DNA of 64,000 nucleotides, from contig CM119371.1 of the NCBI GenBank assembly GCA_051294905.1, forward strand, positions 41,046,001-41,110,000. Direction: 5' to 3'. The stretch comes from Botryllus schlosseri (taxonomy: Eukaryota). Each line of letters opens with the position of its first letter. Position 1 is the first letter of the stretch. Both the position numbers and the translations under genes were made by a program. The notes beneath the pieces are model-generated. The model was not told the DNA's origin. It was given only the letters and a program-made list of their open reading frames with translations, and did no database searches. This document shows positions 11,494 to 56,018 of the stretch, piece by piece.

Positions 11494-11690
11494 TCACCAA
11501 TATGCTCTTTGTAGACCGGAAATTATCTCGTGGTCTGCAATTCTTCTGAAAACTCGCATATCTTTTCGACATTCCGGCAGCTGGCCTTGGGCAGTCTTGT
11601 CACTTCCTCTGCTGCAATCAACTGAAATAGAGTGAATAGGAATAGAAGCGAGCATGGGGACATCGGCAGACCAGTGTCATTTTAGCATAC
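11494..11690 (-). pseudogene. Decayed duplicate of the MRPS14 last exon plus upstream intron end
   Basis: Aligns to 5378-5620 including acceptor and intron. The exon part is 128 nt vs 183 nt (net 55-nt loss, frameshift). No duplicates of exons 1-2 recognised. Confidence 0.85.
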
Positions 11691-16197: not shown

Positions 16198-17014
16198 AGG
16201 TTTGTTGGTAATTTCTAATTAGTTCACTGAAAACAACGTACAAGTTTCGTTGATATTGTATCACTGCAGCATCACAATAATTAATTTACTTCCAAGTAAT
16301 TTGTGTCGAATTGCACTCTAATCATAGGCGATTGGCATACGATACAATAAATACACACAGTTGATTGAGCTCTCTAGTACGGCTTGGCAAAATCAGAATT
16401 AGAGAGAGAGAGAGAATTTATTCGGATCCATGAACATTGATAATACATAGATAGATAAATACAAAGCAACAATTCAGAACCAGCGAAGGGATCGGGAGAT
16501 CATCGAGTCAGCCACTGCCAGGCTATGATAATGCTGTAATGCAGTGATTCCCAAAAGTCTGTGTGCCGCCACAGGTGTGGCACGAACATTGTCAGATTTT
16601 AGGATAAGAACTATAGGCTAATATTAATATCTATTTTGAAAAAGGCCTGGAGACTATAGAACATGCAACTTAAAGGCGCTTTACCTTATTCAACAGCTAA
16701 TAAATAAGCACATGTGACAATGAAACCAATTATGGCATCGTAATAAATCAAGAATAACAGCTATATAAATTGTAATTGGAATTACCCACTAAAAAATTTC
16801 TGCAAAATAAACTAGGCGACAGCTTATTCTTTCTAAAGAAACTGTTGCCTATTTTCCTGGTAGCACTTGCTACACATCTGCAATGAGCTGAAACAAGTCG
16901 TCATTAGACCAACGTACATGTGGATATTTTTGACATCCGAATGTGCCATTAACGATTTCCGATTCACATTATATTTTTGATATACAATTAAATAGTATAT
17001 TCATATTGAAATGA

Positions 17015-17048
17015 ACCCGAATATTTTCGGCTGACACTCGTCAGGGGT
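17015..17048 (-). ncRNA. Minimal hammerhead motif, family 1 (inverted twin)
   Basis: Exact reverse complement of 17132-17165. Confidence 0.75.
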
Positions 17049-17131
17049 AATCGTCAGCAACTAGTAGAGAATTGGAAAGAACATTGTATATCTTTCCAAT
17101 CTTTCCAATTCTCTACTAGTTGCTGACGATT

Positions 17132-17165
17132 ACCCCTGACGAGTGTCAGCCGAAAATATTCGGGT
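17132..17165 (+). ncRNA. Minimal type I hammerhead ribozyme motif (Penelope-like pLTR), family 1
   Basis: ACCC-CTGACGA-G(tgtcagc)C-GAA-AATATT-C-GGGT: intact CUGANGA/GAAA/UH core, 4-bp stem I, 1-bp stem II, palindromic stem III. Confidence 0.75.
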
Positions 17166-18721
17166 TCATTTCAATATGAATATACTATTTAATTGTATAT
17201 TGAAGTTCTGTACCTCCACGAAGCTCTTCAATTATATTTTTGCAAGAGTCATATGGAGTGTTGACAACTCGGCGCAGATACACCTCCGCCACGCCTATCG
17301 ACGATCAATGAAGCCGAACCCTATGCCGCGTAATTCAATTTAATTTATCGCTAAAAATTTGATCATTTCAATACACCACAACCACAAGATTGCGATACGA
17401 TGAAAGATAGGACGGTGTAGAAACGACTTGGAATAGTCCTCGAAATCAAACACCCACCTGGCCTAGGCGATGTAAAAATGCTATTAAAATACTGTGGTAT
17501 AATGTGGTTAGTTGGTTACAATACTCAACCCATTTATTACTTGGTAACAATTTTCTTGGTGCCCAGTTTCTATTGGTTAATTAGTTGCAGTTACTGTGAA
17601 TGCCGGCTTCCTAGTTTCTTGATATTGTTTTATATTTCATCATTCGGCTAGTGTTGTGTTGTTTCGTTCTGTTCAGGCGCAGAAAGCGCGGACTTATATG
17701 TTGCAACAATTATCCATGGTAGAGCTGACTTGCTGATCTCCTCTTCGCTACAGGAGGGTTCCACATCAGCATAAAGTTTACTCCATTTTCTATTCATGCA
17801 TGTTTCTGTCGAACAGAATAACCGATTCTCTCTATCTTTCTCTAATGCAACCGAAATTAGTAATTAATTAAGCATGCATGAGAGAACAACAGATCACATT
17901 TGGGTTATTTGGTCTGGCTGCAGTGCTAGGGGACTGCAGAAAGCGCGGAAATAGATAGCGCCGAGGAGGCCAGGTAGTGTTTAATGGTCAGTGATCGAAT
18001 TTTCACCTCTAACGTACTTCATAACTTCATTCCTGGACTTTTTACGACTATTCCGTGCTGATTTTAGGCAAGGTAGTGTGTATCAGGGTTGGGTAGCATG
18101 GGAAGGGGGATATTCGGGCTGGGTAGCATGGGAAGGGTTCAAGGGGGACATTAGGGTTGAAGGTGGGTTAGGGTATCCCAAGATTAGGGTTGGGGGTGAT
18201 GGATATTAGGGTTGGTAGGGGGATATTAGGATGGGGGAAGGGAGGGCCCAGTGTGCATATATTTTCTAGTACCCTGCTTATGATAATGAACTCTGATTTG
18301 ACAGGAGCTGATGCAGACTTTGATCTTAGTTGTATTTCTTCCTAATCCGAATTTAATTCAATTTCAAAGTTTCCGCGAGTTTATTAATTCTAATTCTAAT
18401 TAAAAGTTTCTTGGGGTACAGAATTTCAATATACATTTAAATAGTATATTCATATTGACCGGGTTGCAATCCCGGTACGTTTAGCGTAATATCTTTGGTG
18501 TGCCAAGACGGTTCTCAGCGTCACACCTGGTGTGTAGTCAGTAGAATCTTTGGTGTGCACGAGACACCGATTCCATATTGGCATATTGAAATGAACCTGA
18601 ATTTTTTTACCGACACTTGTCAGGGCTAATCGTTAGCAAGTATGATAGAGAATTGGAAAGAACATTGTATATCAACAATCGTATCACAAAATATGACGTC
18701 AGCGGGATTAAATTTTGAATA

Positions 18722-22452: not shown

Positions 22453-23821
22453 CAGTGGTTCCCAACGTGGGCGATATCGCCCCCCAGGGGGCGATTTGGC
22501 GGTCTAGGGGGGCGAAAATAACGAAGGGGGCGAAAACGGACGAAGGGGGCGATAGGGGGCGAAAACAACAAAGGGGGCGATAGGGGGGCGATTGCGCGTT
22601 AAAACGGCTATATTGGAGTCAGGACCGTAACTGCCGCACCCAAAACCCTCAATTGGGGTCCGAACTCGAAGGGGGCCCAAAATTATTTCGTGAATTAACA
22701 TAAATTATGGAGTATTAATTAGAAATTCATGCAACTATTTAAAAAAAATTGTCATATCAAATATTGTCATTGATTTCGGGGTACCCTTCCCCCAACAAAA
22801 ATACGCATGATTTAAGGAAATGGAGACTTCGGCGTCGGCCATTGCTGCGCCGCGACGCACCAATGCATATGAAGTTATAGGCCATGTAACATGTAACATG
22901 CAACTCCGAGAAGTGTGCCATAACGATAAGCAGCGAGACGACCTTGGGCGAAAAGGAATGCCCTTGCGCTGACCGAAAACTTCGATATACATATATGTTG
23001 AATTGTCCTTAGGCGCCTCAGTGGCTGGCGTCGAATGTTCCTGTCGTGGCGGTCTGAACCCTACAAGACCAATGCCACCCCGCAGGGAAAAATTATATGC
23101 CACTAAAGAAACTCCCATTTGAAACAATATGCGTATTTTAGTTTGGTACGTTTTGGTGATACCCATATCTTTTGACATAGCAGATATAGGAGGTCACGAA
23201 CTAGCATCATGTAACGAAGTCAATATAACAAAGTGTCCACCCGAAGATGTTTAATTATTATTTAGGGTTACTACCTTTTCCAACAAACCACACTCAGCTC
23301 TACCGATAAATTTGATTACTTGAGCAGAGAGAGCATAAAAAATTGATGGAGATATATATGCAATTCACGACCATATTGACCGATTGAAGCATGAATTATA
23401 TAAATTTGTCGCGTTTCGAGCGTTCAGGCGAAGTACGGTGACTCACCAGACAGTACATGAAATAGGGTATAGCTTATATGTAGCGAAAAAAAGCCCACTG
23501 GTTGAGTGGGTCTAGGGTTTGGTTTATCACTCTATCAGGGCCCAAGACCAACGTTTTTTTGGGGGGGGGCTGACGAAGTGCTGTTACGGTCCTGATGGGA
23601 GTCAAGTCGAAGAAATGACCTTTTTTTTAGTAAATTCACGAACATTTAGCTGTAGAAGTGTGATTTCGAGGTAGAGCCGAAAAGTTGACCTTTTTCAATT
23701 AGTCAACTCGCCGGTGATCCCAGATTGTATATCCATTTTTTGGTTCCCAATATTTGGGGGGCGATGATCGGCGTGGAGCTTCAAAAGGGGGCGATGAGAC
23801 GAAAAAGGTTGGGAACCACTG
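22453..23821. mobile_element. hAT (Buster/Charlie-like) MITE with nested hAT at 22620-23594
   Basis: TIR CAGTGGTTCCCAAC, perfect TSD GTATAGAC. Inner TIR CAGGACCGTAAC, TSD ATTGGAGT/ATGGGAGT. Confidence 0.9.
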
Positions 23822-23896
23822 GTATAGACAAACATCGCAGAGAGAGAGAGAGTTGGTGTCAGACTTCTGGAATCACCCCCTCGCACAATGATTAGA

Positions 23897-24243
23897 CAGT
23901 GGTTCCCAACCTTTTTCGACCCATCGCCCCCTTTTCAAGGTCAACACCGATCATCGCCCCCCAAATTTTGTGTACCGAAAATTGGGCATACAAACTGTAA
24001 TCACCGGTGGGTTGACTAAAAAAAAAAGGTCAAATTTTCGGCTCGACGTCTAATTAGACATACTTTTGTAACTAAATTTCCGTGGGTTGACTAAAAATAA
24101 AGGTCAGCCGTTTTGACACGCCATCGTCCCCTTTGCTATTTTCGCCACCCGTCGCCCCCTTTGTCCATTTTCGCCCCCCTGTCGCCCCCCTAGACCGCCA
24201 AATCGCCCCCTGGGGGCGATATCGCCCACGTTGGGAACCACTG
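23897..24243. mobile_element. Inverted second copy of the CAGTGGTTCCCAAC MITE
   Basis: Same TIRs and internal sequence in opposite orientation; flanked by GATTAGA repeats. Confidence 0.9.
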
Positions 24244-32632: not shown

Positions 32633-33773
32633 GTCTTGAGTCACCTACAAGAATCAAGTGACTTGACTTGACTCGAGTCACCTCGATTTGATGTCTTTTG
32701 TTTGCGATGTCACTGTTGGACCATCATGACATAACGTAACAGGTAACGGGAACGTCCTTGTCTCTAAACGATTTTAGATAGGAGCCAAAGCCTACGAGGC
32801 CCGAGATGCGATAGCTCAGGCCAGTAACGATATCACTCGCACCCATCGCCATTGCAGATGCAATCGGTCAGGCCAACGATTATATCGTCCGAACCAGACT
32901 TATTTGATGGGAATATTCAGGCCATCTGGACCAGGCCTGTTGCAGATGCAAATGTTGAGGCCAGCAATGATATCATGAGCACCACCTGTCCTGCTGTAAA
33001 TGCGATAGTTCTGGTCTGTTGTCGACGCGATGAATCAGGCCAGCAAAGATTGCCGAGGATTTAGCAATGAATGACCTAATTTCGCTTGCGTACAAATGGC
33101 AAACCAACTCCGTAGGAGATCGCGTGCTGTGCATACGAATCTCTTTAATTAGCAACGCGATTTCCGCTGATTGACATTACTCAAGACTAATGATACAAAT
33201 TAATGGGCAGGATGGCTAATTGTGATGCGCAATTGACGACAAACAAGATGAAAGGTGTGATTTCAAGGGAGATATTTTCAAGAATTGTACTCATGCATAG
33301 TGCACCCCTCCCCGGGGTGAAATTTTGTGCGGTAATTCTATTTCTAGTTTCGAATTTTGAAAAATGAGTACATTGGTTCTAGTTGTGAATTTCGGTAAAT
33401 GTCCAATTTATACAAGTCTGGGTGTAGAACTGACGTTATCTTATTTGTTGTTTCATGAAAGGTGTAATTTGAAATTTACGCCTCATCCTTAAAATCATGA
33501 CACCATACTTGGTGATATTCGACTCAAATCATAGGCCTAATACTAGATTCTGAATAGAATCACTCGGATACTCGATTTTGTCCATTCCTACCCATAAGTG
33601 TGGAACAGCATATTTTAGCCACCAGACCACACCAATTATGGAGTTCTGTGTGATACATGTGCAGTAGACTGACTTTTGTTTTGAGTAGACACCTGCTCTA
33701 ATATGTGATTGTTTCTTGTTCAGACCCATATAGAAGTATAAGTTCTGTGGTTTTGGTAAATATTTGTCTGCAA

Positions 33774-35225
33774 ATGAATCCGAACTTTGGCGTCGGGTCT
33801 AACAGTCGGTCCACGGAATATGAATGTGAGGTTTGCTGCATACTGTTTCCCTCGAAGTCGGCATTGAAAAGTCATTTGGATATTCACACAGGTACGAAAA
33901 ACTATGAATGCATTGTTAGCGGCAAAAATTTTTGTCTGAAGGCAGACTGCAAGACCCATGAAAACATGCATACCAAAGACTACACAGACATTTGCGAGAT
34001 TTGCGGCAAAGTGTTTCACACAAAGAATAATTGGAGAATTCATATGCTGATTCACACTGGTACCAAAAACTTTGAATGTGATATTTGTGGCAAAAAATTT
34101 CTTTACAGCGGACATCGTTTGGCCCACATCAAAATGCACACAGAAGAGTACACCTGCAGTTGCGAGATCTGCGGCAAAGTGTTTTACGCGAAGCAGAACT
34201 GGAGAAGTCATATGCGTATTCACACTGGTTCCAAAAATTATCAATGCGATATTTGTGGTAAAGTGTTTAACACGAAGAGTACCTTGAGGGTTCATATGGA
34301 TATTCACACCGGTACCAAAAAGTATCAATGCGATATTTGTGGCCAAAAATTTCTTTCCAATGCACACCGTTTGATCCATATCAAAACACACATGAAAGCG
34401 TACACAGAAAATTGTGAGATTTGCGGCAAAATGTTTTACACAAAGCTGAACTTGAGAAAGCATATGGAAATTCACACCGGTATAAAAAACTATCAATGTG
34501 ATATTTGCGGCAAAAAATTTCGATACAACGGCAACTGCAACGCCCATGTCAAACTCCATGCAAGTGTGTACGTAAGCAGCTGCGAAATTTGCGGCAAGGA
34601 ATTTTATTCCAAGAAAGGTGTCAAGGTTCATATGAAGGTGCACCTTCCAAAGAAAAACCTCCCATGTGAGGTCTGTGGAAAGCTGTTTCCCTCGTTATCG
34701 CTTCTAAAAACACACATGGCAGCACATGAAGTTAGGATCAATGGCTCTGAAGATGTCCAGATTCAAACTTTGGACGAACAATTTAGAAACGACGAAGACT
34801 TCAAAAAGTATGAGTGCAAAGTGTGTGGAAAGTCATTTCCCCGAAGGATCAGTCTCATTAGACATCTCAAACATCATGCCAGGACCCGAGACCATCCCTG
34901 TGAGGTCTGCGGGAAAGCGTATTTGACAAACGTTCATTTACAGAGACATATGATTACTCACTTGGACGCTGTAAAAAATTTTGTATGTTCAATATGCGGA
35001 AAAGGTTACGTTACTTTCGATTATATGAGACATCACATGAAGACGCACATCGCGAAGAACTATCCATGTGAGATTTGTGGTACGATATTACACAGCATGC
35101 AAGGATTCACGCAGCATATGGAAAGCCATGCCGGGTCATGCGTACATCAATGCGATATATGTGGAAAGTCATATGCCAACAAGTCTAACTTGAGTTATCA
35201 TGAGAAAAATTCACATCGTTTCTGA
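33774..35225 (+). CDS. C2H2 zinc-finger protein, 16 fingers (11 + spacer + 5; finger 2 has Cys>Ser) ('ZF-A')
   Basis: Repeated CxxC-x12-HxxxH. First ATG at 33774. Acceptor TTTCTTGTTCAG at 33723 and the frame is open through it, so an upstream coding exon cannot be excluded. Confidence 0.9.
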   Translation: MNPNFGVGSNSRSTEYECEVCCILFPSKSALKSHLDIHTGTKNYECIVSGKNFCLKADCKTHENMHTKDYTDICEICGKVFHTKNNWRIHMLIHTGTKNFECDICGKKFLYSGHRLAHIKMHTEEYTCSCEICGKVFYAKQNWRSHMRIHTGSKNYQCDICGKVFNTKSTLRVHMDIHTGTKKYQCDICGQKFLSNAHRLIHIKTHMKAYTENCEICGKMFYTKLNLRKHMEIHTGIKNYQCDICGKKFRYNGNCNAHVKLHASVYVSSCEICGKEFYSKKGVKVHMKVHLPKKNLPCEVCGKLFPSLSLLKTHMAAHEVRINGSEDVQIQTLDEQFRNDEDFKKYECKVCGKSFPRRISLIRHLKHHARTRDHPCEVCGKAYLTNVHLQRHMITHLDAVKNFVCSICGKGYVTFDYMRHHMKTHIAKNYPCEICGTILHSMQGFTQHMESHAGSCVHQCDICGKSYANKSNLSYHEKNSHRF

Positions 35226-36753
35226 CAATGCTTTGGCTGAAGTGTGATTGTTTGAAATCATTTGCTGTCACAGTAAAGTGATATTGTGAATTCGGTTCCC
35301 ATATATTTGCGTCGTATGCTATGGCGTTGAAAGATAAGAAAAAGGACTGATTTTGGTCGCATTAGTAGTGTGTCCTTGTATTCGGTAATGTCTACAAAAT
35401 TCGCTATCTCTCGAACATCAGAGATTATTAAATTGTTTACTTGTAATTACTATATCGCTGAAAAATTATTTGTAACAGAATGCGTACGCAACTGTCCATT
35501 GTCTCCCTGTAAAATCAACACACCCCGAACTTCATGCCATCGATGTGCAGGCGAATGAAGTGAAGTCAATTTTTGTCACTCTGCGTCTCATGCTACTCAT
35601 AATGGCACCCGATTGAAATTAGTGATCTTCCTATTTATGATGTCGATACTTATTTTTAAGATCTTACTCATGAAACCAGAACTTTGTGAAGGAATGGTTC
35701 CTTATTTCAACAGACCATCCTTTCATGAATATGTGTTTTCTTGAACTCGAAATATATGACTTTCATTTCTCCCTTTTTATTTTTATTCAACCATTCTTTC
35801 TTGAGTGTCCTGCTGCATCTTACCGGTAGGTGAATGATGTTATTGGACTGTTTCCGTTATTTCTGTAAAGGGGTCCTTTTTCTGTATATGTCTCCCCATG
35901 GATGATGATTATTCATATTCCGATTATTGCTCAAATTTCATGTATTTCATTGATGCTAGTTTCTGGCAGGTAATTGAATGCTTCAAGTTTGTACGGAATA
36001 GCAATACTATGACTAGCATCTCGCATTACTATCATCAATAAAACTTTAGATCCTCTGATCATAATTACTTGCATGCAGAGGTGGTTAATGCAGTCATTAC
36101 TGTACTTGAATAGAAGTAGGTGTTACACAGTAAATGTCCACTCAATTACACATTGAAGTAGTGATATTTAAAATGTAATTCAAGTAGATATAGACAATGT
36201 GGGTATAAATGTACTAAAGTAATTTCAAAACAATAGATTTGGTTAAGACGTGGCATACGATAAGTCGGGAGTGTCAAACTCGAATTGCGCCACAAGCCGG
36301 ATTCATGTCTTCCAATCACTCGCGGGCCAGACAAGCCGACAGATTTCAAAATGTTACCTCGCGCTTTTGCTATTCACTCATATACTTTAACGAGCATATA
36401 TACATAATTCACTGATCATAGGGGTTCTATTCTAGCATGTCGCAACACCTGTAACCGTGGACAATGGAATTAGCGAAATGAAATGATTATCAGCTGACCT
36501 ATTGGGTAGAAAGTGACCTGGCTGTGGGGCCATAGATATTTCAATTATATTTTTGTGTAACTTATACTTATCCATCTAAACCAGGGGTTCTCAACCTGGG
36601 GGGCGCTGGAGGCTCTCAGGGTAGGCGCGAGAAATTTTTGTTAATTTTGTCAATGTCTGTATAAATTGTGACCAAACATGTGTTTCTCAGCCATTCTGGG
36701 TTGCTTTCACACCTTATTTAACGTCCACTTGCAAAGTAATAATTATATTTATT

Positions 36754-36790
36754 ACACAAGCTTTCGGAGCGCAGCTCCTTCATCAGGTGT
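36754..36790 (-). ncRNA. Minimal hammerhead ribozyme motif, family 2 (Penelope-like pLTR)
   Basis: Reverse complement ACAC-CTGATGA-A-GGAGC(tgc)GCTCC-GAA-AGCT-T-GTGT followed by AATAAA. Confidence 0.8.
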
Positions 36791-37592
36791 TCTGAAGAGA
36801 CGATTATTGAAGATTAAACTTAATTCGTTTTCTAGAAAGCTTGCCAAACTCAAACTCGAGCAGTCGCGCTCAGCTGAGTATAGGCTGACTTCAACTTCAT
36901 ATGAGCAAATTTTTGATATATGAAGATTTGGAGAAATTCCAACATGCCAGTCATTCATTACTTTATAGCTTTGGCAGTAGCCTGTGCGCTACGTAGCTGT
37001 TATTGATAGCTGGCGAACTGCACAGCCTAAGACAGACTTAGATGCAATATAGGTTGCCCGGTTTCGCCCTCTATTTGGCTATAAATCAACACAATTTAAT
37101 TCATTTCCAAAACTGATCAAATTTAGCATGGCACTACAGAACGACGCCATGCTCTCTGTAGTCACGACCAGCATCAGGATTAGTGTCAGTGCAACCTACC
37201 TTGAAATTAATTGGTGTCCTTTTCAATGTTTTTTTGTTATTTTCAAACAAGTTTGGGGAAGTTTATCAGCAATGTAAAAGACTAAACAACTGGAATGCGG
37301 ATTCAAAATTGGCGTAAGATATACCTTATGTATACTATCAGATCAGGGGTGGGCAGCCTGTACGGGCACATGCGGCCGTAGAAGGGAATTTGTGCGGTCG
37401 TCGACGCCTAATTCAATTAGTGTGTGTTGGTAGCCGTAGACATGCAAATTGCAATTACGAATTCACTGCCGAATTTTCGAGAGATTTTATTCAATCTTGA
37501 AATTTTCTTCGCGCTCGGCGCAATTCAACAAGACTTCATTTTTCGATTTTAATGCAGTAGCGCCCTTCTTAATTGGAGCAGGAATGGGAATA

Positions 37593-38874
37593 CCGTAAAC
37601 CGGGGTAACATTGGACAATTCTCAACAATTCCGCTTTGTATCTTGGAAATGCTAGGGTGTATGGGAGGCAAGTTTTGTGTTTTTTTGGAGTCATGGAGCA
37701 AAGATTAGAATTAACTAATCCAAAATCTTCATGGTCATAAATAAGTACCTTATTTTTGTAAATTATCCGTGTCCAAACTTTGGACAATGTAGTTTTTTGT
37801 ATGCCTTTACCCTCTATTGTTTATGAAACCTCGTAAATGAGGCTTATTTGGTAAGAGTTGATGAGAGCAGTGACTAAAACTGAAACAAAATAGTATATGT
37901 CTGGCCTATTGCATGATTTTTACCTACCCCCCCCCCCCCCCGCCCCCCCAAAAAAAATCAGGTAGTTTATGAAGGCTAATGCCCCCTTATTCCTCCCTTT
38001 ACTCAATTTTCCCTCATGCCTTCACCAGTTAGGACTTATATAATAACGTATGGTGACAATGGGGTATCCCACTGGCAGTGTCAGCAATCGTCAGCAAACA
38101 TTAAGTATGTTAGCGTGATTTATTGCCGATTTCGAATATATTACTGTTCTAGAAAAGATATATTTTCCCTTTCCTATGTCCTCTGATGGATATATTTGTC
38201 GTAATTTACGATATCCCATATTCAGCAGGCGCATCTTTAGGAGTATGTGATCAGTTTTTCAAGTAGCTTACACCCGTTTATAATCTCTCAGCTCATTGCC
38301 TACCCATTTTTTCATATTTTGGCAAACTCTTAATTTATTAACCTTCTCATTCCATTTTAAGAAGCCATCAGACCGGTTATAAGGAATATAGTTGACGATA
38401 CCCTTTGACACAGATGAAGTAGCCTATTTCCAGAGCTCTAAATATCACATTTTTCACTGTCCAAAGTTGCCCCTTTCTGATAAAATTTGACGGGGTAACT
38501 TTGGACATCACATTTTCTTGTATTGATCTAAGAGTGAGCCCACTGAGATTTTGGCCATGGATTAAGACTACTTAGAGGTATCTGCTGCCAAGCTTTGAAT
38601 CTATGAATCACATGCTATCTATGTTTGGCTGTAAGAAGTTTATTGGCCATCAATTTTGACGAAATTGACCCCCTCCATTAATTTATCGATGTTGGGTCAA
38701 GTTTATCTGGTAGTGAAATGAATCCACCTTTTATATAGACTACTTGTAGTACTGTTGCCTCATGACAAAGAATTGGACATCCAGCGGCAACCCTTTTTCA
38801 TCAATAACCATTTAAATCTTTTACTGCTTAGTGTCCAAAGTTACCCTTAAGTCCAAAGTTACCCCGGTTTACGG
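37593..38874 (-). mobile_element. pogo-like (Tc1/mariner) deletion derivative
   Basis: TIR CCGTAAACCGGGGTAAC(A/T)TTGGAC flanked by TA. Decayed psq-HTH-like peptide (A.AEYGIS..T....RG) on - at about 38165-38240. Confidence 0.8.
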
Positions 38875-40105
38875 TACTCAAAAAATAACAATTCATTCCC
38901 AGCTCTGAAAATTTTTCAATATGCACTCCCAGCAACTATTCATAACATTGCGACTCGCGATTTCGGTGCGTACAATAGGCTGTTGTGAAAAGTAGAATGG
39001 TTCGGAGTTCACCGGGAATGGATATGGACAGTTTAGCATAGGTATTTTGCGTCCAAATCATTCATTGCGGCTATGCCCTGGAATGTGGCCTTAGGCTACA
39101 TAAGTAATCGAAATGCGGCCATGATTAGCAGGTTGATGTGCTCTTTTTCACATGACGATAAATCTAAGGGGATTCAGATGAGGAGCAATTTTTTTGACCA
39201 TCGCCAAGGAGGGCGCGTGTAAAAAAAGGTTGAGAACCGCTGATCTAAACTGAATGTAACGGTTCCACACTGGCTTTTTTGCCTCTGTGGCCAGCTAATT
39301 TTTGGTCCATTTTTCCATAAAACTCTGAACTCAGTGTTCACTTTTTGCTTTCTCAAAATTGGGTGTCAATGTCACCGTCTCATAGTCGGGGGGGTTATAA
39401 TGTGGACTACGACAATGCTCGACATTTACTGACTTTAGGAATATTTAATGGAAGTGTATTCCCTGCAAAATATCTCATCATTTTTGACAAATGTGTTGGA
39501 TAACATTCAGAATTGCTTCGTGGGCCGGATTAAATCGTCTTGTTGACCGGATGCGGCCCAGGCCGAATGTGTGACACCCCCGTTATACTTGGTGAAATTA
39601 CTGACCTGCATCCGGCTGCATTTTTGTAACTAACCGGAAATAACTAATGACACCGCAATTAGATACATTTTCCGAAAATACGTTCCGATATGGTGATGAA
39701 TGGGCTATTTCACCCAGTAATTAGTACAATTTTACACGGTGGGCACATACCGAAACTACGTTCCACTTTGTAATATCCAGAATCTGAAAAGTAGGTATTT
39801 TAGCTTAATACACAGTCAAGTAGAGGTAATCGATAACACAACTCCTTGAGTAAACAGCGTGAGGAGATGAAACCTGGTTGAGTACTGTGAAAAATAGGAG
39901 TACTTCGTGTGTGACCAATGGCCATCTCCGCTTGCATGCTTTTTCAGTCAGTTTCTTACTGTATATATGTGTGTGATTAATTCAGTTGCTGTAATAACAA
40001 TATTACTGTCTTGACAGGTGCTATAATCGAACCTATGCAACCTAATAGCTCTGTTGCAGAAGATTTGGTAGACACTGAATTTCAAGGCTACAACTCAATT
40101 TTACG

Positions 40106-40555
40106 ATGAGTTACATTCGTCGGGCGTTTGCGGATATCGAATGTCCAGTTTGCGGCAAGAACTACAAAGGAAATTACATAGACACACATGTACGCAACCA
40201 CTACGACATCAAGCCTCACGCTTGCTACATTTGCGGCAAAGGCTTGACCACCAAGGCAAGTCTGGAGCATCACGTCCTCACTCACACGAAGCGTTCTAAA
40301 AGAAAGACGTACAGTTGTGAGCATTGCAACAAATCGCTATACACGAAGAAGGGTCTCGAAAGCCATTTGAAATCTCATTTCAGTGGGAGACAATACAAGT
40401 GCGATATTTGTGGCAAGGAATTTGTTACAAAATCGTATCTGGTTAAACATATCGACATTCACAATCCTGTTCCTAGTTTTCAATGTGAGATCTGTGGAAA
40501 GAGCTACAATACAAACTCAATCTTGCAGAGCCATATTAAAAATCATTTTAAATAG
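40106..40555 (+). CDS. Small C2H2 zinc-finger protein, 5 fingers ('ZF-B')
   Basis: 149-aa ORF MSYIRRAFADIECPVCGK...; acceptor TCTTGACAG at 40017. Confidence 0.85.
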   Translation: MSYIRRAFADIECPVCGKNYKGNYIDTHVRNHYDIKPHACYICGKGLTTKASLEHHVLTHTKRSKRKTYSCEHCNKSLYTKKGLESHLKSHFSGRQYKCDICGKEFVTKSYLVKHIDIHNPVPSFQCEICGKSYNTNSILQSHIKNHFK

Positions 40556-43130
40556 TCAGAAACGTCGGCTGTATGGGCCAGTGTGGAGTAAGTGTCCGTG
40601 GCTGTCTTTTTCATTGATTTTTTCGACTATTGCACCTGGCGAAGTAGCTTGCACTGACTTTCAGACCAGTAGTTTGACCTGGCGGATCGGTCAAACTTCA
40701 AAACAAATGCTGTGGATCAGCGAACCTACAAATCCAATATTCACCCTAAATTTAATTACGACAAATGTATGATATTGGAACCTTCATTTGAAGCTGCTTT
40801 TTTATAGTAGATAATTATACGTAGTCTTTCAAGTTTCTGAAAGACAGAGCTCGTGAAGTACCATTAAAGACCACCAACGTGATTGTGGGTGTTTGATATC
40901 CTTTGAAAGAAATGTGACTTAGAGATCTATTGTACTGCCAATTTTCGCTTAATTGGCGCTGTCAGAATTTAACGAAGTTTGTTTACGTTTTTTTCGTAGC
41001 TTTCACATATAACTTGTCTCAAATTCGTACAACGCTTCTCCTTACAACACTTGCACATCGTGACGCACGCTTGAAGTACCATAGACCTTGCACGCTCTAC
41101 TACGATAACATGGAAAAATTATGTTCCTTAATTCTAAACTAGTGGTTCTCAGACTGGAAGGCGTAAAAGCATCTGAAAGGAGAGTAGTGATCAATGGAAA
41201 ATCTGTTCTTTTTACCTGTATAGTCCGAATTTCCTATTTGAGAATTGTCTCATCAACAGTTGAAACCTTCCATGCCATCATACTATTTGTTGGGATTGCT
41301 GGCATTCTGGTTGCATTTTGTGATGTGACGATAAGGGGGCGCAAAATTTTTTGCTGTCATCAAGGTGGACATGTCCAAACAAGTATGAGAACCAGTGTTA
41401 AACCAATATAAAATTGATGTTCTATTTTTTAAATTATTGGACAATAGTCCAATATATAGCCAATAGATATATAAAAGCATCCTTGATCCGGGGACTATCA
41501 ACGAAAAACTCAAATAGTTCCCCTTCTACTAGCCGGAATTGACTCAAATTTGTTTCGCATCGTCTTTGAAGACAGCCCAACAATTTCATGGGGTTGACAG
41601 AAAAATTTGAGAACTCTTGATTTTAATTTTTATTGATAAATTAAAAATTTCAATTTAAGATTACACGGCCTTTACTGGTTGGAATTGAGTCAAATTTGGT
41701 GTGCATCGTTTTCTTGGACAACCTGACGATTTAGTCGCTAAACGAGTGAGATTTGTAAAAAAAAAGTTGTTTTTGAACAACCCTACTGAGCAGTGTTGTA
41801 ATGACCCGAGTCATGACTCTACTCGAGTCACCATTTTTTTGAGACTCGAGCTATTTTTTCAAATGTGCCCGACTCGAGACTAAACGACGGCGAAAACAGA
41901 TGTTTCATTGTAACTTTGAAGAATAGTAAAGTTATTATTGGTATTTTGTCTATCAGTCCTGATACTTGGAAAATAGGGTCAGAAACTGTTGAGACTGAAG
42001 AAAATTTTCATTATATCAGTCGATAAGAGTTGGAAAAGTGGATTGAACCGAAAACTAAACAGTGAACATAATGAATTGGACTCGGACTCGAGTCAAACCG
42101 CTATGACTCATACTTGACTAAGTGGTAAATTGAAAATGACTCGACTTGACTCTGTTTAAAATTATAAAAGTCAGATTGCCTTGTGACTTGGTTACAACCC
42201 TGGACCTGAGCGCCCGTAGGATGATCAGCTCAATACCATTTAGAGGCGAAAGACCTCTGATTCCTCTTTTTCGACGTCCACCACCCAGTCCGCCATGAAT
42301 CTCTATACGATTCACAAAAATATGACATCCTTATATAACGAACTAAGTCAGGTAATATGCGATTCATGAACGCACCGAAGCACCTGCGAACACCTTCTAT
42401 GGACTTTCTACGCATTTATATGCTAGTCGTAACCACCCGGGAAGCGCAAAGAATACTTGAAGCCAATGAATGATATGAACAATAATATTGGGACTTCTGT
42501 GCATGAATATCATTTTTTAACTTCACTTAGCCGTTGTGACCATAGATCCGATTATTTCAATAATCTAGCACCCGTAGGCTACATTCTGAGGATTTTTCAA
42601 GCCACTAGCAATACTATTATGATGGAATGCCGATGCATTATAATCATGTACCAGTAGGTTGCACAATGCACACCCCAATACATAGGCAATTGTGCATGTA
42701 GTTGAAATCATGTTGGTATTGTTTTATCAAGTGTGCAGTATCCATATTAACATTAAAACGAATAGTGCCATTGAATCGTGCGCAGTGTGAAGAAAATTTT
42801 GAGTTGAATAAGTTTGCCCCAAAATTCAAGTTTATGTCGATTTACGAAACAATTTTCGCGCCTACCTTCTCGCAACACCCCTGCGTAGTCCAATCGGAAA
42901 CCCAATGGGCCGCAGCACATGGTTGGGAACCACTGATATAGTCAGTACTTTATTTTGATATATTTATTGTCGAAACTACAATCTTGTACCCATGTTGGAT
43001 TCATTAAAATGTTCACTTTGTTTGCAGGTTACTTAACAAAGTAACGTATTGTTGGTGTAATTGAGAGTGTGATTTAGTTGCTGCTACTCGTAGGCGTCAT
43101 CTACGTCAAATATTTCCAAAAGCACACAGC

Positions 43131-43514
43131 ATGAGTCACCTTCATCGTAGCCTGCAGCCCGCCGGTTGTCCGATATGTGGGAAGAATATATTTCCTAAAT
43201 ATAACTTGAGAAATCATGTGCTCTCACACTATGGAGTGAAAAAGTACATTTGTTCCATTTGTGGTCACAAGTTTACCTCGCAACACGGTTTGGAACATCA
43301 CATGAACGGTCACAGAGAAGTCTCGGACAGAACTGGGTACGATTGTGAGGTGTGCGGAAAATGTCTTAGCACGAAAGGCGGCATGAGAGAACACATGAAG
43401 GCTCACTTGGATATGAGAGACTACAAATGTGACGTGTGTGGTAAGCAGTTCGCTAGAAGGAATAATTTGCACGGACACATGGAGACACACAGAGCTGATA
43501 GGAGTCCTGAATGA
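43131..43514 (+). CDS. Small C2H2 zinc-finger protein, 4 fingers ('ZF-C')
   Basis: 127-aa ORF MSHLHRSLQPAGCPICGK...; acceptor TTTGTTTGCAG at 43027 with an in-frame stop between acceptor and ATG. Confidence 0.85.
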   Translation: MSHLHRSLQPAGCPICGKNIFPKYNLRNHVLSHYGVKKYICSICGHKFTSQHGLEHHMNGHREVSDRTGYDCEVCGKCLSTKGGMREHMKAHLDMRDYKCDVCGKQFARRNNLHGHMETHRADRSPE

Positions 43515-44323: not shown

Positions 44324-46379
44324 ATGAACTGTCTCTACTACAATGATCATTTTACACCGACGCAATATCTTTTATTGTGATTCCGTACCTGCTGACTAGT
44401 GGCAGGGCTCAACTCAGGCTTTTTTAAAACCTATTTATTTGTCCGTCTAATCTTGGATTGCACGATGCATTGAATAATCAGAGTGTAAAGCTGATATGTT
44501 AGCAACGGTGTGCCTATCGAATGCAAACATGGAATGGCAACGACTGATTTTTCAGCTCCGTTCCGGTTCGCTGAAGGCTTATTCAGTCTTACTTTGCGGC
44601 TGCTACTGTGGGATTTCTTGCAATCCACAAGTTATCTTCCAGAGCGCGGAATTCATTGAATCTGGTCTTGATCGAAAGCTACTGTCGCACTGAATCCGAA
44701 AATATAAAGTAAGATATGATCAGGCGCTGAACCACGCAGAATTCGCCCTCTAAGTCTGAATTACTGGCATTGTCCGAACTATCAAAGAGCTGCAAGAGGT
44801 CATTGTTTTGCCTTCATCCCATTGTTCTTAACAATGCAGATTTTAGATGTTGAGGGAGATTTTTCATCTAGGTGCGGATCTTGACCTTATTTTCAATTAT
44901 ATTTTCGGAACAGAGCGACAGTAGCTTTCGATCAAGACCAGATTCAATTCTGCGCTCTGGAAGATAACTTTTATATTGCGAGAAATCCTACAGTCGCAGG
45001 CGCAAAATAGGACTGAATAAAGCTTCAGCAAACCGGAACGAAGCTGAAAAATACTCTTTACCTCGTAGAACATTATAAATGGGTTACTATGTTGTCAGTA
45101 TGTTATGATTTCGATTATAAGCTTCTAATAATCTCAAAGCGTTTTTTTGTACTTCTTTGGTGAAATGGGTACCGTAATTTTCCATGTATGATGCGCAACT
45201 TTTTACCGATTTTTAGCCCAAAAATAGGGGGTGCGTCTTATACATGGGTACAGCGAGCCTTGAAAAATAAATTTCTCGATCAAAAACTTGAAAGCACACC
45301 TTTCTTCATGTTTGTTTAAATCACGCATCACCTCTAGCCATTGGGCCCCGAAATTCGTATTATAGAGTGTAACACGCTGCCAAATAGAGATGCGTGTTGC
45401 CAATTACCGAAAAGCGTGTTTCTAATTAACGAGAGTCGTGTGCAAAGCACGCGATCTCTTGCTGAGTTGGTTTGCAGTTTGTACGCGAGCGAAATCAGGG
45501 CGTTGATTGCAACAAGCGTGCGCAGCAGTCCTCGTTGATTCACCGCGTCAACGACAGGCCTAATCAATCACATATACAAGAGGCCATGTGCGCAAGATAT
45601 AATCGCTTGCGTAATCAGTCGCATCTCCAACAGGACTGGTGCGCCCGACATAACCGTTGGCCTGAGCAATCGCATCTGTAATTGTAATAGGTCACGTGCG
45701 CAAGATGTCGTGTGTCGCTAGCCTGAACTATCGTGTCGCCGACCTCACAGGCTTTGGCTACTATCTACTTTCGTTTAGAGAGAATGTCGTTAATTGTTTT
45801 ATGATTAGCGATCATTATGTCATGATTGCTCGACAGTGACATCGCAAAACAGAACAACATCGAATACTAAACCGCAACTTCATGTACTCATGTACTGCGA
45901 ATGCAGGGTGCGTACTATACATGGGTACAGGCTTTTTTCCAGAATATACACATCATTTTGGGGGCGCACTTTATTCGGAAAATTATTGTAATCATAATTT
46001 TGAAGCATTTTTTTCTTTTAGTGACTGTATTGGTAAAAAATTCATTTCATATATATCACAATACCTCTGGATACCAGGCAATTGTGAAGATCCAGTCACA
46101 TGAATAAGCCTTGCTTCTTGTTCCACATGTACTGATCTGCTATGTTTCTACATTGCTAGTTGATAGAATCTTCCCACTGTAAATCAGATCAGATGTTGTA
46201 CATACATTGAACTATTTTTTTTTATAATTACTAGAGTTGGAAATATTTGCCTACATAGTTTGTGGAAAATATTACTTGAACTTTGAACTGGAATACTTGA
46301 GAGCTCGTATGTTATCGCCACTGTCACTGATATAAGCGTGCGTTGTGTTGACCTGCGATGATCGGTATCACGAAAAAAG

Positions 46380-47263
46380 AGACATGGAGTCAAATACAGT
46401 AGCTAACAATCAGATATTAAAGATCTTCGGTGCGATGTTTCCAAGAAAGAGTTTTCACAAGGCGTGGACCCGAAGCATCATTCATACGACCATGTGCATG
46501 CTGGCATAGGAAATCATAATTACGATTGTGGGAAAATATTTACTGGGACGGATTGCCTCGAGCGTCACATGAATACAGATACTGGCATCGAAAAGCATAT
46601 ATGTGAAAAAGCATTTCTTACAAAATTATTGCCTCAAGCTTCATTTGGATATGCATAATGGCATCAAAAATCATACATGTGTCATATGTGGTAAAGCTTT
46701 TACCCAGAAGGATGGCCTCAAACACCATGCATATGCATGCTGGCATAAAAATCATGAATGCAATGTATATGGAAAAGCTTTTACTCAGAAGAGTCACCTC
46801 AAGGTTCATATCGATACACATGCTGGTATAAGAAATAATGAATTTGATATATGTGGGAAAACATTTACTCGAAATGCTGACCTCAACCATCATGAATATT
46901 CATTTTGATATCAAAGATCATATATGTGGGCGAGCATTCACTAAGAAGAATCCACTCAAGCCTCATATGAACATGCATATTGGTGTCGAAAACCACATAT
47001 GTGATGTATGTGGAAAATCATTTACTCTGAAGAGTGGGAGCAGAAGGCATATGTATAATCATGCTAGCATTAGAAATTACGAATGTGAGCTCAGTGGTAA
47101 AATATTACAAAGCGTGCTGGGATTCAAGATTCATATGAAAATCCATGTTGGGTTGAGCGATCATCAATGCGAGATTTGTGGGATGTCATTTGTTAACAGG
47201 AGTATATTGAAAAGACATCGACCGATTCACATTGTTGCTCACAATGTTGCGGTTAAGGTGTGA
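46380..47263 (+). pseudogene. C2H2 zinc-finger pseudogene (HxGIKNH linker type)
   Basis: Finger fragments split over three frames (ORFs 46464, 46603, 46838); many Cys/His losses. Confidence 0.85.
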
Positions 47264-47714
47264 TTGCTTGAAATCATTTACAATGTAAAAAGTCGTAGAA
47301 ACTTCACAGTGAATTGATATGGGGAATGCGGCTTCTCATTGTGTTCGTGAGATCCTATTGCTTTTAAAGGTGAGGAGAAGGTGACTATGATGTCTTATTT
47401 AGACTCTCAATATGATTCTTGTTCGCATTGTCACAGTTACCACTCCTAAATTCCGATTGTGACCTCATTAAAGGATGATGTTTGTGAAAGTGTTTTAGTA
47501 CTCGGTAATATCTGTCTACAAAAATTACGATTTCTCGTATTCCAATTATGAACAAACTGTATTTGCAATTGTTATAGTGCAGCAATATGATCATATGTAA
47601 CATAATGTGTTGGTGACCGTGCATTATCTCGTTGTAATTTCAATGTGATCAGATGTGATACTGACAATGTATTATTGTATTGACAGGAGTTATAATTAAG
47701 TCTGGTAAACTTGT

Positions 47715-48582
47715 ATGCAACACCGCAGCAGGTCTAATATAACTTATAGACGCTCAAATTCCACGCAAAAACTCGAGTCCCAGATGAGCTATATTCGCCG
47801 GGCCTTTGCAGACTTCGAATGTCCAATATGTGGCAAGAGCTACAAAGGAAATTACATAAAGACCCATGTGTACAAACACTATGGAGTAAAAAAGTACAGT
47901 TGTTTCATTTTCGGTTGCAAGTTTACGGTAAAACATAATTTGGAATATCACATGAATGTTCAAAGGTCATAGAGAACTTTCGGATAGAGAGACGTATGAA
48001 TGTGAGGTATGTGGGAAATGTCTACATTCCAAAACTGGCCTGGGTAGACATATGAAGTCGCACGTGGGTATAAATGTCACAGAGTGGAATAGTGACAGAG
48101 AACTAGCAGATAGAAATAGGTACGTTTGTGAGGTATGCGGAAAATGTCTACATACGAACTCCGGCATGCACAAACACGTGAAGTCGCACTACAGAGTAGA
48201 AAAGTACAGTTGTTTCATTTGTGGTAGCAAGTTTACCACAAAAAAGGATTTTGATCATCACATGGGTGGTCATAGAGAGCTTTCGGAGAGAGAGACGTAT
48301 GAATTTGAGATATGTGGATAATGTCTACGTTCGAAAACCGGTCTGGGCAGGCATGTGAAGTCGCACGTGGGCATAAAAGTCACGGAGTGGAATGGTCACT
48401 GAGGACTTTCAGATGGAAATATGTACGCTTGTGAGCTGTGCGGAAAATGTCTAGGCACAGAGAGCGGCATGAGATTGCACATCAAGTCTCATTCGGGTAT
48501 AAAAGACTACGAATGTGATATCTGTGGCAAGAAGTTCGTGGTCAGGTCTCGATTATATAGACACATGGAGACACACAGCTAA
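47715..48582 (+). pseudogene. Chimeric ZF-B/ZF-C zinc-finger pseudogene with internal duplication
   Basis: 5' part matches ZF-B (MSYIRRAFADFECPICGKSYKGNYI), the rest matches ZF-C. 7-nt insertion frameshift near 47958; premature TAA at 48319 and TGA at 48400. Confidence 0.85.
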
Positions 48583-52642: not shown

Positions 52643-53930
52643 TAACACTCATGAATGATCAGAGTATGGAACTGGTTTAGAGTCGACTCGGGTATAATGG
52701 AATCTGCTGAAATTAATCTGCAGCGGAATTCGCAACTCAGATTGTGAAATGGTGTTGTGTGTGCTTGTGGGATTATTTCTGATATTGACTACAAGCTTTG
52801 TCTTTTTAGCATTAGTGTTTTTTTGTTTTATGGAAAAAAACAAAACGAATGTTGCGCCGGTCGAATCAGGCCCTGAAAGCAAAGCTACCTAGACGATTTG
52901 TGTGCTCATCTTTGATTGTATCTTGATTTTCAGTGCTGATCCAAAGCAGGTGGCGATGTATGATGAATATAAGCCATTTTAATCTGCCTGTTTTTGTACT
53001 TTGTATCGTTTTTGTGTAACTGACTACGGAAGTTTCCGAACACTGTTTCTGGTGTTTTTGCTCTTCAGGTGAAACCAATAACAAAAATCTCCTTCTGTAA
53101 AAGGTAGACTGCCTTTAAACAATAGCATACTGGCCCTTTTATCTCCCACAGAGTTGGTTTTTTCAATGCGGCATAACGGCGATTCTTGCATCCTCTGAGC
53201 TTCAAATTTTCTGCAGGTTGCAACCTAAATGAATTTTCGCTTGATTATGTTCCCTGTATTTCTTCGTACACGCATCATATCGAGAAGTGTACCCTATCAA
53301 CCTCTGTCACAACATTCAGCATTGCCGTGGATACTTGATCGGTCGCATTGCTGCGGTTTACGAGCTACCAATGGAAGGGGTTGTCTTTTCTGTGCAAAAT
53401 GTAGGATTGACATCTTCTGCTGTGTTGTAATATGATACGGTGGCATGAACTATTCGGTCTGCCACAGATACCAATACTGTATGTTTTGCATGCTTTTACT
53501 CCTGTCTCTCAATAGTTTTGACACAATACCATTGGATTTGCCTTGATTAGTGATTGTGTTGTACTGGTTAGAAACTGTACGTGCCGGTTCGTCCCCCGAA
53601 AATACCTATGTGTCAATTGCACTGTGTACAATCTCAGGACGTTCCATTTTTAAGAATATTTGCCATCTTTTATAGATATGAGATGGTACCACTGCCATAC
53701 TGTCATTGAGCCCAATTTCATGTGGTGAATAGTAATATTTGACTGAAAATCCATTGAAATTTAGCATTATTATTCCAGAAGTTCGGTTAATATTTATGCT
53801 CGAAACATCAACATAAAGATTTGAACTCCCCTCCATCAACCATTTTGTCGACCTGAGACGACCATATTCACGACTTGGAATATTGTAGTACAATTTTCTG
53901 GAAACATGTTGCCGTGACATCAAGCTTCAT

Positions 53931-54890
53931 ATGGATATCCATACTGGAATCAAGAATCATGAATGTGTTATATGTGGTAAAGTATTTACTAGGACGCACG
54001 GCCTCAAGAACCACATGGATATACATACTGGAATCAAAAATCATGAATGTGATATATGTGGTAAAGTATTTACAAGGAAGCACGTCCTCACGTACCACAT
54101 GGATATGCATGTTGGAATCAAAAATCATGAATGTGATGTATGTGGTAAAGCATTTACTAGGAAGTACAGCCTCAAGTACCACATGGATATGCATACCGGC
54201 GTCAAAAGGTATAAATGTGATAAATGCGGGAAAAAAAGTACCAGTCCGACGCAACACGAGCATCATATGAATATGCATGCTGGAATCAAAATCCATGAAT
54301 GTGATATTTGTGGGAAGAAGTTACGTTATAAGCAAACACTCGCGTTTCACATGAACACGCATTTTGGCATCAAAGCCCATAAATGTAAGATTTGTGGGAA
54401 AGAATTTAATCGAGAAATTATACTTAAGCATCATATGAATATGCATGCTGATGTCAAAAATCATGAATGTTTCATATGTGGTAAATCATTTACATCGAAC
54501 GAGCACCTCAATCGACATATTCATACGCATACTGGCGTCAAAATCCATGAATGTGATATTTGTGGGAAGAAGTTCAGTTATAAGCAAACATTCACGCTTC
54601 ATATGAACGTGCATTTAGGCATCAAAAACCATAAATGTGATATTTGTGGGAAAGGATTTTGTCAAGGAAGTCAACTTAAACGTCATATGAATACACACAC
54701 TGGTATCAAAAATCAGAAATGTGATATATGTGGGAAAGCATTCACTAGTAGGAGATACCTCGCAGCTCATGTTGAAACACATGCTCTTGTCAAAAACCAT
54801 AAATGTGATATTTGTTGGAAAGCATTTACTCAGAAGACTCACCTCGAGCGTCACATGGTTGCATGCTGGCGTCAACAATTGAAAATGTGA
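53931..54890 (+). CDS. C2H2 zinc-finger ORF, 10 complete fingers + 1 truncated; probably truncated at both ends
   Basis: 319-aa open array with HxGIKNH linkers. Starts mid-finger (KLH|MDIH; in-frame TAG at 53886) and the last finger is frameshifted. Confidence 0.7.
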   Translation: MDIHTGIKNHECVICGKVFTRTHGLKNHMDIHTGIKNHECDICGKVFTRKHVLTYHMDMHVGIKNHECDVCGKAFTRKYSLKYHMDMHTGVKRYKCDKCGKKSTSPTQHEHHMNMHAGIKIHECDICGKKLRYKQTLAFHMNTHFGIKAHKCKICGKEFNREIILKHHMNMHADVKNHECFICGKSFTSNEHLNRHIHTHTGVKIHECDICGKKFSYKQTFTLHMNVHLGIKNHKCDICGKGFCQGSQLKRHMNTHTGIKNQKCDICGKAFTSRRYLAAHVETHALVKNHKCDICWKAFTQKTHLERHMVACWRQQLKM

Positions 54891-56018
54891 TGCACATTGG
54901 ACTGGGGGTTTTCATCAAATTACTGCTAATTCTTTTCATATTTCGAGTTTCGAATCGTGTACGAAAACCCATCATATATTAAACACCTTCGCTGTGCCTT
55001 ACGTTATAAATTGTCATCTCTTTTCTCAGTCTGGAACGCCATGTTAGTTTCTCTGAAACATAATCCGAGTCGGTGATGGGCATCACGAGATCGTCATTAT
55101 TGCAAGGCAAATTGTGTGATCTACGGTCATGGTGCAAACTGCTTAATACTTTCTGTATAGCAAGAAAGTGCCAAATGTGCTCGCCATGGCGCTCTGCTCA
55201 TGAGTTTAGTGACTGCATTCTTGAAGCCAAATTTGGTTCAATTCTAACAAGTATAGGGCTCCGCAGATCCAATTGAATTTTTTAATTTTAACTAGAAAAT
55301 TGAAAAAAAATTAAATTTTTCTGTCAAGCCCATGAAATTGTTGAGCTGTCCGCAGATACCATATGCAAAACAAATTTGACTCAATCCTTGATTGGTGGAT
55401 AATCCGAGGATTATCAACGAAAATCTCCAATTACTCAGCTTCTACTAGTTGGAATTGAGTCAAATTTGTTTTGCATGGTCTCTGAAGACAGCTCAACAAT
55501 TTCATGGGCTTGACAGAAAAATTTGAATTTTTTTTTTCAATTTTCCAGTTTAAATTAAAATATTCAATTGGATCTGCGGAGCCCTATACTTGTTAGAATT
55601 GAAACAAATTTTGTGTGCAGCGTTTTTTAGGGCAGCCTGACGATTTAAGAGGTGACCGGCTTCAATCGAAAAAAAAGTTTTTTAGGGAACAGCCCTACTG
55701 TACAGTACATAGATTAAAAAGAATTCTGCATCTAAATTTTCGTACTACGTAGAATCACAAGTAGGCGACATACTGAATCATTCATAGTACTGCACTCTAT
55801 TATCAAGTTTTCTGATACATGCATTATTCTGAAAACTGCGATCATGGGCCAGGATTGGTGTTGTGTAATATACAATTTCTTGTCGGGTCTTGAAGCCATG
55901 TAAATAAACTTACTTTGGTCCAGATTGATTTTCATACCAGCGACCAACGTATGCATACAAATTTACAGCTATCTTTTCGGTGGAAATACATTTGTATAAT
56001 ATATTCATATTGAAATGA

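Follow-up and report, generated by a model that had tools for sequence, protein, structure and literature searches.

The minus strand of the 64,000-nucleotide stretch of DNA analyzed here (the window) carries a minimal type-I hammerhead motif within a 91-bp insertion, likely a later one, in a hAT element. The insertion is probably (at a probability of roughly 0.78) a truncated 3' end from a Penelope-like element (PLE) of the Neptune/Nematis type, whose hammerhead would cut only as a dimer. Judged by its letters and predicted pairing, the motif is an already described hammerhead type of PLEs and not something new.

Anatomy and class of the hammerhead motif

The letters of the motif, verified by re-reading the sequence, are present on the minus strand at 36790-36754 just as the first-pass annotation had quoted them, including the AGCT palindrome. 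The 5' strand of helix I (ACAC, 36787-36790) leads into the catalytic box CUGAUGA (CTGATGA in DNA; 36780-36786, with C3 at 36786 and A9 at 36780) and then into an unpaired extra A (36779) between A9 and G10.1, a hallmark of PLE minimal hammerheads (PMC4209133). Stem II (GGAGC-tgc-GCTCC, 36766-36778), with 5 bp and a 3-nt loop, is closed by G10.1-C11.1 and is supported both by the predicted fold and by covariation among relatives. It is followed by the GAAA box (36762-36765, recognized by its letters), by the loopless palindromic stem III AGCU (AGCT in DNA; 36759-36762, with U16.1 at 36759), by N17, just 5' of the predicted cut (36758; U here and C in most family copies), and by the 3' strand of helix I (GUGU, 36754-36757, from letters and fold). 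AATAAA (36748-36753) comes directly after this strand, and farther downstream is a TGGAC...AGGTGT box (36709-36727, with TGGAC at 36727-36723 and AGGTGT at 36714-36709) that is common to the related loci L011/L022 and L026. All three stems had been said to pair. Stem III, made of A-U and G-C without a loop, cannot close within one molecule, and its pairing is predicted only between two copies. Because A36790, the first A of helix I, belongs to the duplicated target, only 3 helix I pairs are surely borne by the element.

In the sections of Cervera and De la Pena (2014) used here (PMC4209133), the marks of the minimal hammerheads of metazoan PLEs are a base between positions 9 and 10.1, a G10.1-C11.1 pair, a palindromic 15.2-16.2, a short helix I (3 to 5 bp), an AU-rich 3' flank, and a loop 3 that is absent or tiny. 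The window motif has every one of these marks. It also has the core CUGANGA...GAAA...UH, with U as N17, and its 5-bp stem II closed by G10.1-C11.1 lies within the 3- to 8-bp range of the class. By our own count in the PDF text of the supplement to that paper, the AGCU palindrome occurs in 5 of the 56 published rows (1 of them vertebrate) and U17 in 24 of the 56; the exact family of the window is absent from these 56 rows. The resemblance to hammerheads of Penelope pLTRs that the first-pass annotation had proposed is therefore supported by the published consensus, and also by relatives beside GIY-YIG and reverse transcriptase (RT) ORFs. The qualifier "of vertebrates" had to be given up, the palindrome not being specific to them. 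The host is an animal with C2H2 zinc-finger arrays, and the CpG observed/expected ratio of the window (0.93) would suggest an invertebrate. The AATAAA that had been named a polyA signal is a candidate one: of the 13 relatives with a sound structure, 3 have AATAAA after the motif, the published flank is described simply as AU-rich, and RNA ends did not pile up in the about 6% and 3% of two RNA runs that were read. Two readings of the change from C to U at N17 were dropped: decay of a methylated CpG, in view of the same CpG ratio, and a disabling change, in view of how common U17 is among published motifs.

A descriptor that was chosen after the motif had been seen (at least 4 pairs in stem II, at least 4 in helix I, and at least 2 in stem III) matches the window at this one site, whereas 100 first-order shuffles give no match, and the 41-nt motif folds with a z score of -2.97. 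Rfam returns 7 matches in the window at E<=1, with no hammerhead among them, the position of the motif included. A spurious Rfam match to a microRNA comes from the long palindromic repeat at 55229-55611, which is MITE-like, as are those at 23616-24106 and 44547-45052.

The window also holds a second hammerhead-like family, with CTGACGA, a 1-bp stem II with a 7-nt loop, an AATATT palindrome, and no extra base. It occurs at 16980-17200, 7026+, 24358+, and 56048- (5 cores in the window, one of them degenerate), and its 17136+ and 17044- cores form a 221-bp palindrome, like inverted PLE ends. The present motif had been called unrelated to this family, and the local alignment agrees: its score of 13 is equalled by 396 of 500 shuffles. 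Arrays of C2H2 zinc fingers with 84-bp repeats lie on the plus strand at 33702-35225, 40079-40555, 43065-43514, 46832-48321, and 53889-54890, and the hammerhead is antisense to them. On the minus strand at 15061-16218 there is an uninterrupted ORF of 379 to 385 aa, intron-free within the ORF, which is glutaminyl-peptide cyclotransferase-like (M28 family).

The insertion and its host hAT element

As first noted, the motif lies inside a hAT element with a perfect target-site duplication. The element spans 36582-39242, the 8-bp sequence ATCTAAAC stands on both sides of it (36574-36581 and 39243-39250), and its terminal inverted repeats have 16-nt ends that match at 15 of 16 positions. ATCTAAAC fits nnnTAnnn, the target rule given for Buster elements (PMC3517528). 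No ORF of at least 120 aa was found within 36582-39242, and further elements are nested there, from which we take this hAT, with its Buster-type target site, to be a non-autonomous composite. One nested element, at 37593-38874, has 24-bp inverted ends with TA on both sides and is Tc1/mariner- or pogo-like by its ends. A second hAT-type element lies inside the first, with its left end (CAGGGGTGGGCA...) running from 37344 onward; its other copies are preceded by nTCTAGAn-type sites (loose ends at 37371, among the 24 listed of 572). Depth over 36994-37333 is far above that of the hAT arms, suggesting one more repeat.

The inserted piece occupies 36699-36789 on the minus strand and appears to be a PLE 3' (pLTR) end whose 5' side is cut 3 nt above the hammerhead core. 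It is flanked by two copies of TTCTG, at 36694-36698 and 36790-36794; 4 of the 5 letters of the copy at 36694-36698 also fit the family's own continuation, as microhomology. These boundaries follow from the letters and from a joint, 36693->36790, in other copies of the host. A 5'-truncated insertion with a target duplication of variable length and a hammerhead near its 3' end is a PLE-type feature, seen here with 91 bp inserted and 5 bp duplicated.

Public runs were aligned to 36450-37450 at 80% likeness. Two of these, X1 and X12, consist of contigs and were read whole, X12 carrying another species label; the other two, X23 and X21, are raw RNA, of which about 6% and 3%, respectively, were read. 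The joint 36693->36790 leaves out 96 bases, 5 letters being ambiguous. It is present in 5 contigs of X1 and in 3 reads of X21, and 2 and 1 further X1 contigs have offset forms of this piece-skipping joint, of which there are two (among the 15 listed of 35 joints). In an additional 21 X1 contigs, the loose end at 36790 resembles the left arm at 36664-36693, with 26 of 30 letters equal when compared by eye (among the 24 listed of 572 loose ends). In X1, depth, which is summed and is not a copy number, reaches 44,043 and 43,139 in the bins flanking the piece, as opposed to 8,891 to 13,914 on the piece, and is 19.5 on the outer hAT flank. In X12, depth is flat across the piece (304 to 429) and the empty joint is absent among the joints listed; in the roughly 6% of X23, no joint lacking the piece was found among those listed.

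The family of the piece is itself multicopy, with 66 X1 contigs and 14 X12 contigs sharing one variant at 36758. This is the C at N17, present in 5484 of 5798 units of depth in X1 and in 392 of 409 in X12, where the window copy has U. Copies also lie outside this host: 46 X1 contigs and 9 X23 reads leave the alignment at 36695 into mixed flanks (among the 24 listed of 572 loose ends), with an agreement beyond that point of 0.57 in X1 and 0.74 in X23 and a minus-strand start of TCTTATT. Among the same listed ends, those of RNA reads at 36768 and 36787 have upstream sequences unlike each other.

The empty hAT joints, together with the occurrence of the piece in other flanks, indicate the later insertion of a dispersed repeat and not cargo of the hAT element. 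The hammerhead piece is thus likely a later insertion into the hAT, although a few further hAT copies may have the piece. Both possibilities had been raised in the first-pass annotation, and it is the later insertion that gains support, from the piece's own 5-bp duplication and from the empty form in other copies. In the comparison with other hAT copies that it had proposed, X1 and X21 contain the empty form; X12, with flat depth and no listed joint, is uninformative.

That a hAT subfamily carries and spreads the hammerhead as its cargo is very unlikely. Although the motif sits inside intact hAT ends, and the flat depth of X12 with no empty joint among those listed would suit such a subfamily, the piece has a duplication of its own and is also found in other flanks, the empty form occurs among X1 DNA contigs as well as X21 reads, and X1 depth drops three- to five-fold on the piece. 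A chance look-alike, which the short stems and the missing Rfam match might bring to mind, is almost certainly the wrong explanation: none of the 100 shuffles gives such a motif, the motif makes up the first 36 nt, counted from the 5' side, of a discrete insertion, and relatives with a covarying stem II exist. The discrete insertion and the relatives refute it.

Relatives and proposed origin of the piece

Searching metagenome contigs for the core returned 39 hits, 13 of which combine at least 4 pairs in stem II, at least 3 in helix I, and an N17 other than G, as opposed to none of the 46 hits in viruses and prokaryotes. A stem II of at least 4 pairs, which was set by neither search pattern, occurs in 16 of the 39 metagenome hits and in 1 of the 46 controls, whose pattern was similar to that for the metagenomes but lacked the fixed GTG. 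One viral scan gave 0 hits and another gave 1, which is coding sequence, and 0 of 91 stretches were confirmed; the 45 hits in prokaryote genomes, used as a control, included none with the structure. In an alignment of 7 motifs chosen from the 13, 92.7% of cells pair, although the search pattern had set some of the helix I columns in advance; in stem II, there are two pairs in which both members change.

The nearest outside relatives, L011/L022, are identical to the motif at 32 of 35 positions and share with it both AATAAA and TGGAC...GGTG. Outside the ribozyme, likeness to the relatives is weak, with a score that is reached by 25 of 1000 shuffles for L022 and by 192 of 1000 for L026. Tandem or inverted pLTRs are typical of PLEs of this type, although short copies need not have them; the window copy is solo, and there is an inverted segment between L011 and L022.

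A Pfam scan of 18 chosen ORFs from the metagenome loci gave GIY-YIG matches above the cut-off in L015 and L026, RVT_1 matches just below the cut-off in L003, L019, and L030, two matches to a GDSL family, and no match for the remaining 11. The L022 ORF, which ends 754 bp upstream of the hammerhead on the same strand, has no Pfam match itself and shares 42% identity with the L026 GIY-YIG ORF (E 6e-43); L035 resembles L026 weakly (E 3e-04). The L022 ORF has a CX3CxxC linker and CCHH residues, and the endonuclease ORFs of L022 and L026, relatives from other organisms, both carry a CX2-5CxxC linker and a CCHH motif, features that Craig et al. 2021 (PMC8557442) ascribe to Neptune and Nematis. The nearest relatives lie 255 to 754 bp downstream of GIY-YIG-type ORFs. 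By analogy with a relative in another organism, the piece is likely of the Neptune/Nematis type, an assignment that leaves the two undivided. The 3' ends of the Neptune/Nematis-type PLEs (L022/L011, L026, and L015) have the same ribozyme layout as the window motif; those loci have an ORF upstream, whereas the window copy is 91 bp long, ORF-less, and nested in a hAT. A tblastn search of the window with 5 PLE ORFs found no remnant of a PLE protein (best E 0.75), and nothing among the 105 ORFs of at least 25 aa in 36000-40000 looks PLE-like by eye.

The metagenome hits include two other arrangements. In L003, L019, and L030 (also L025 and L028), a hammerhead of the same layout lies about 1.2 kb 3' of an RT ORF that contains PADKG, and 43 bp farther on comes a first ORF resembling GDSL esterases weakly; in L019 the arrangement is tandem. 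The RT ORF has no GIY-YIG match, and the whole looks like a two-ORF PLE. A further family (L001, L007, L008, L010, L033, and L037) has the core, a stem II of 2 to 5 bp, and the AGCU palindrome; 5 of its 6 members have only 1 helix I pair adjoining the core and may use a shifted helix I.

For the window copy, we infer that a PLE endonuclease nicked the left arm of the hAT and that the free target end in TCTG primed on the CAGA of the RNA, about 10 nt before the (ATT)n at which the family usually ends. Target-primed reverse transcription would then have stopped after 91 nt, 3 nt past the ribozyme core, and a second nick would have produced the 5-bp duplication.

The piece could instead derive from a short non-autonomous family, either SINE-like or a non-LTR retrozyme monomer, that borrows PLE enzymes, and not from a truncated coding PLE. 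The 5' end of the piece does fall exactly at helix I, no ORF of its family was seen in the tblastn search of the window, the RNA reads with loose ends at 36768 and at 36787 have dissimilar upstream sequences (among the 24 listed of 572), and pLTR-derived retrozyme monomers have been described (bioRxiv 10.64898/2026.07.22.740005). Such retrozymes are like the piece in their type-I hammerhead, in being non-coding, and in their PLE derivation, but in the portion of that report used here their definition calls for at least two units in tandem, every one carrying a hammerhead, and the piece is solo. With no tandem array at the site, with the nearest relatives 255 to 754 bp 3' of GIY-YIG-type ORFs, and with 5' truncation being the norm for PLEs (PMC8557442), this origin is unlikely.

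Quite unlikely, too, is that break repair pasted in the piece via microhomology, templated from PLE RNA, cDNA, or DNA, in place of target-primed reverse transcription. The clean 5-bp duplication with target bases intact argues against such repair, as does the polarity, which fits priming at the 3' end, even though the 3' junction has 4 nt of microhomology, the piece ends before the family's usual end, and the target contains G and C, unlike the AT-rich ATT site that an anole PLE favored in vitro (PMC11167929). The truncated 3' end of a PLE, inserted by target priming, remains the preferred reading.

Predicted folding, cleavage, and significance

When the whole insert is folded, a downstream hairpin covers the cut site, AGGUGU pairs with ACACCU, and the pair probability of helix I is 0.0. 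We also considered that a monomer might fold with a long stem III, and rejected this, the downstream hairpin leaving no U16.1-H17 that is followed by a helix I partner. The energy model puts the active-type dimer at -18.7 kcal/mol and the inactive duplex at -28.5 kcal/mol, a comparison that is weak because the model ignores the tertiary contacts of the core. A second copy of the motif, which could serve as the dimer partner, was not found in the window. Since the copy is without a partner in the window and has downstream sequence predicted to lie over its cut site, it probably does not cleave and is likely an inert passenger.

In the sections of PMC4209133 used here, a single motif did not cleave and dimers cleaved weakly, and most motifs are single, probably originating from truncated elements. 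Where elements are intact and in tandem, the hammerhead would act on their precursor RNA either as a dimer or helped by the element's protein. The hammerhead of whole elements has been proposed to cut a tandem precursor RNA as a dimer (PMC6765202), and the ribozyme of an anole PLE needs its protein and is dispensable for insertion in vitro (PMC11167929).

Reads that are at least 99% alike over the whole 1-kb stretch amount to 2 of 186 and 3 of 425 aligned reads in the two raw RNA runs. RNA ends piled up nowhere on 36450-37450, the cut site included, in about 6% of X23 and 3% of X21, fractions at which an absent pile-up is uninformative on cleavage. Another PLE hammerhead, that of PAc (Poseidon) from Anolis, is similar in that RNA-seq reads ending at the cut site are likewise absent from the results of PMC11167929 used here. 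PAc differs in that its ORF begins inside the ribozyme and its insertions favor ATT sites, whereas the window copy has a TTCTG target and an ORF-less 3' side.

The pairing partner of helix I belongs to the downstream TGGAC...GGUG box, and one could suppose that this box is a conserved off-switch in Neptune-type pLTRs, in which GGUG would pair with the 5' strand of helix I and block the active fold until protein binding or an early RNA end. We consider this doubtful. Complementarity of 5 to 6 bp between the box and helix I occurs in three independent sequences, namely, the window copy, L011/L022 (UCACC/GGUGA), and L026 (ACACC/GGUGU), and in the window copy the pairing also takes C3 and U4; the lowest-energy folds of both relatives (L011/L022 and L026) retain helix I. 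An off-switch of this kind, if true, would bear on the poor cleavage of PLE hammerheads on their own and on their need for the element's protein (PMC11167929).

As it stands, the finding has little significance, because solo motifs of this type are abundant in animal genomes, numbering from hundreds to thousands (PMC4209133), and nested repeats are routine. The insertion is a clean example of its kind, in which both junctions are known, a 4-nt microhomology would have served for priming, and the 5' boundary lies exactly at helix I.
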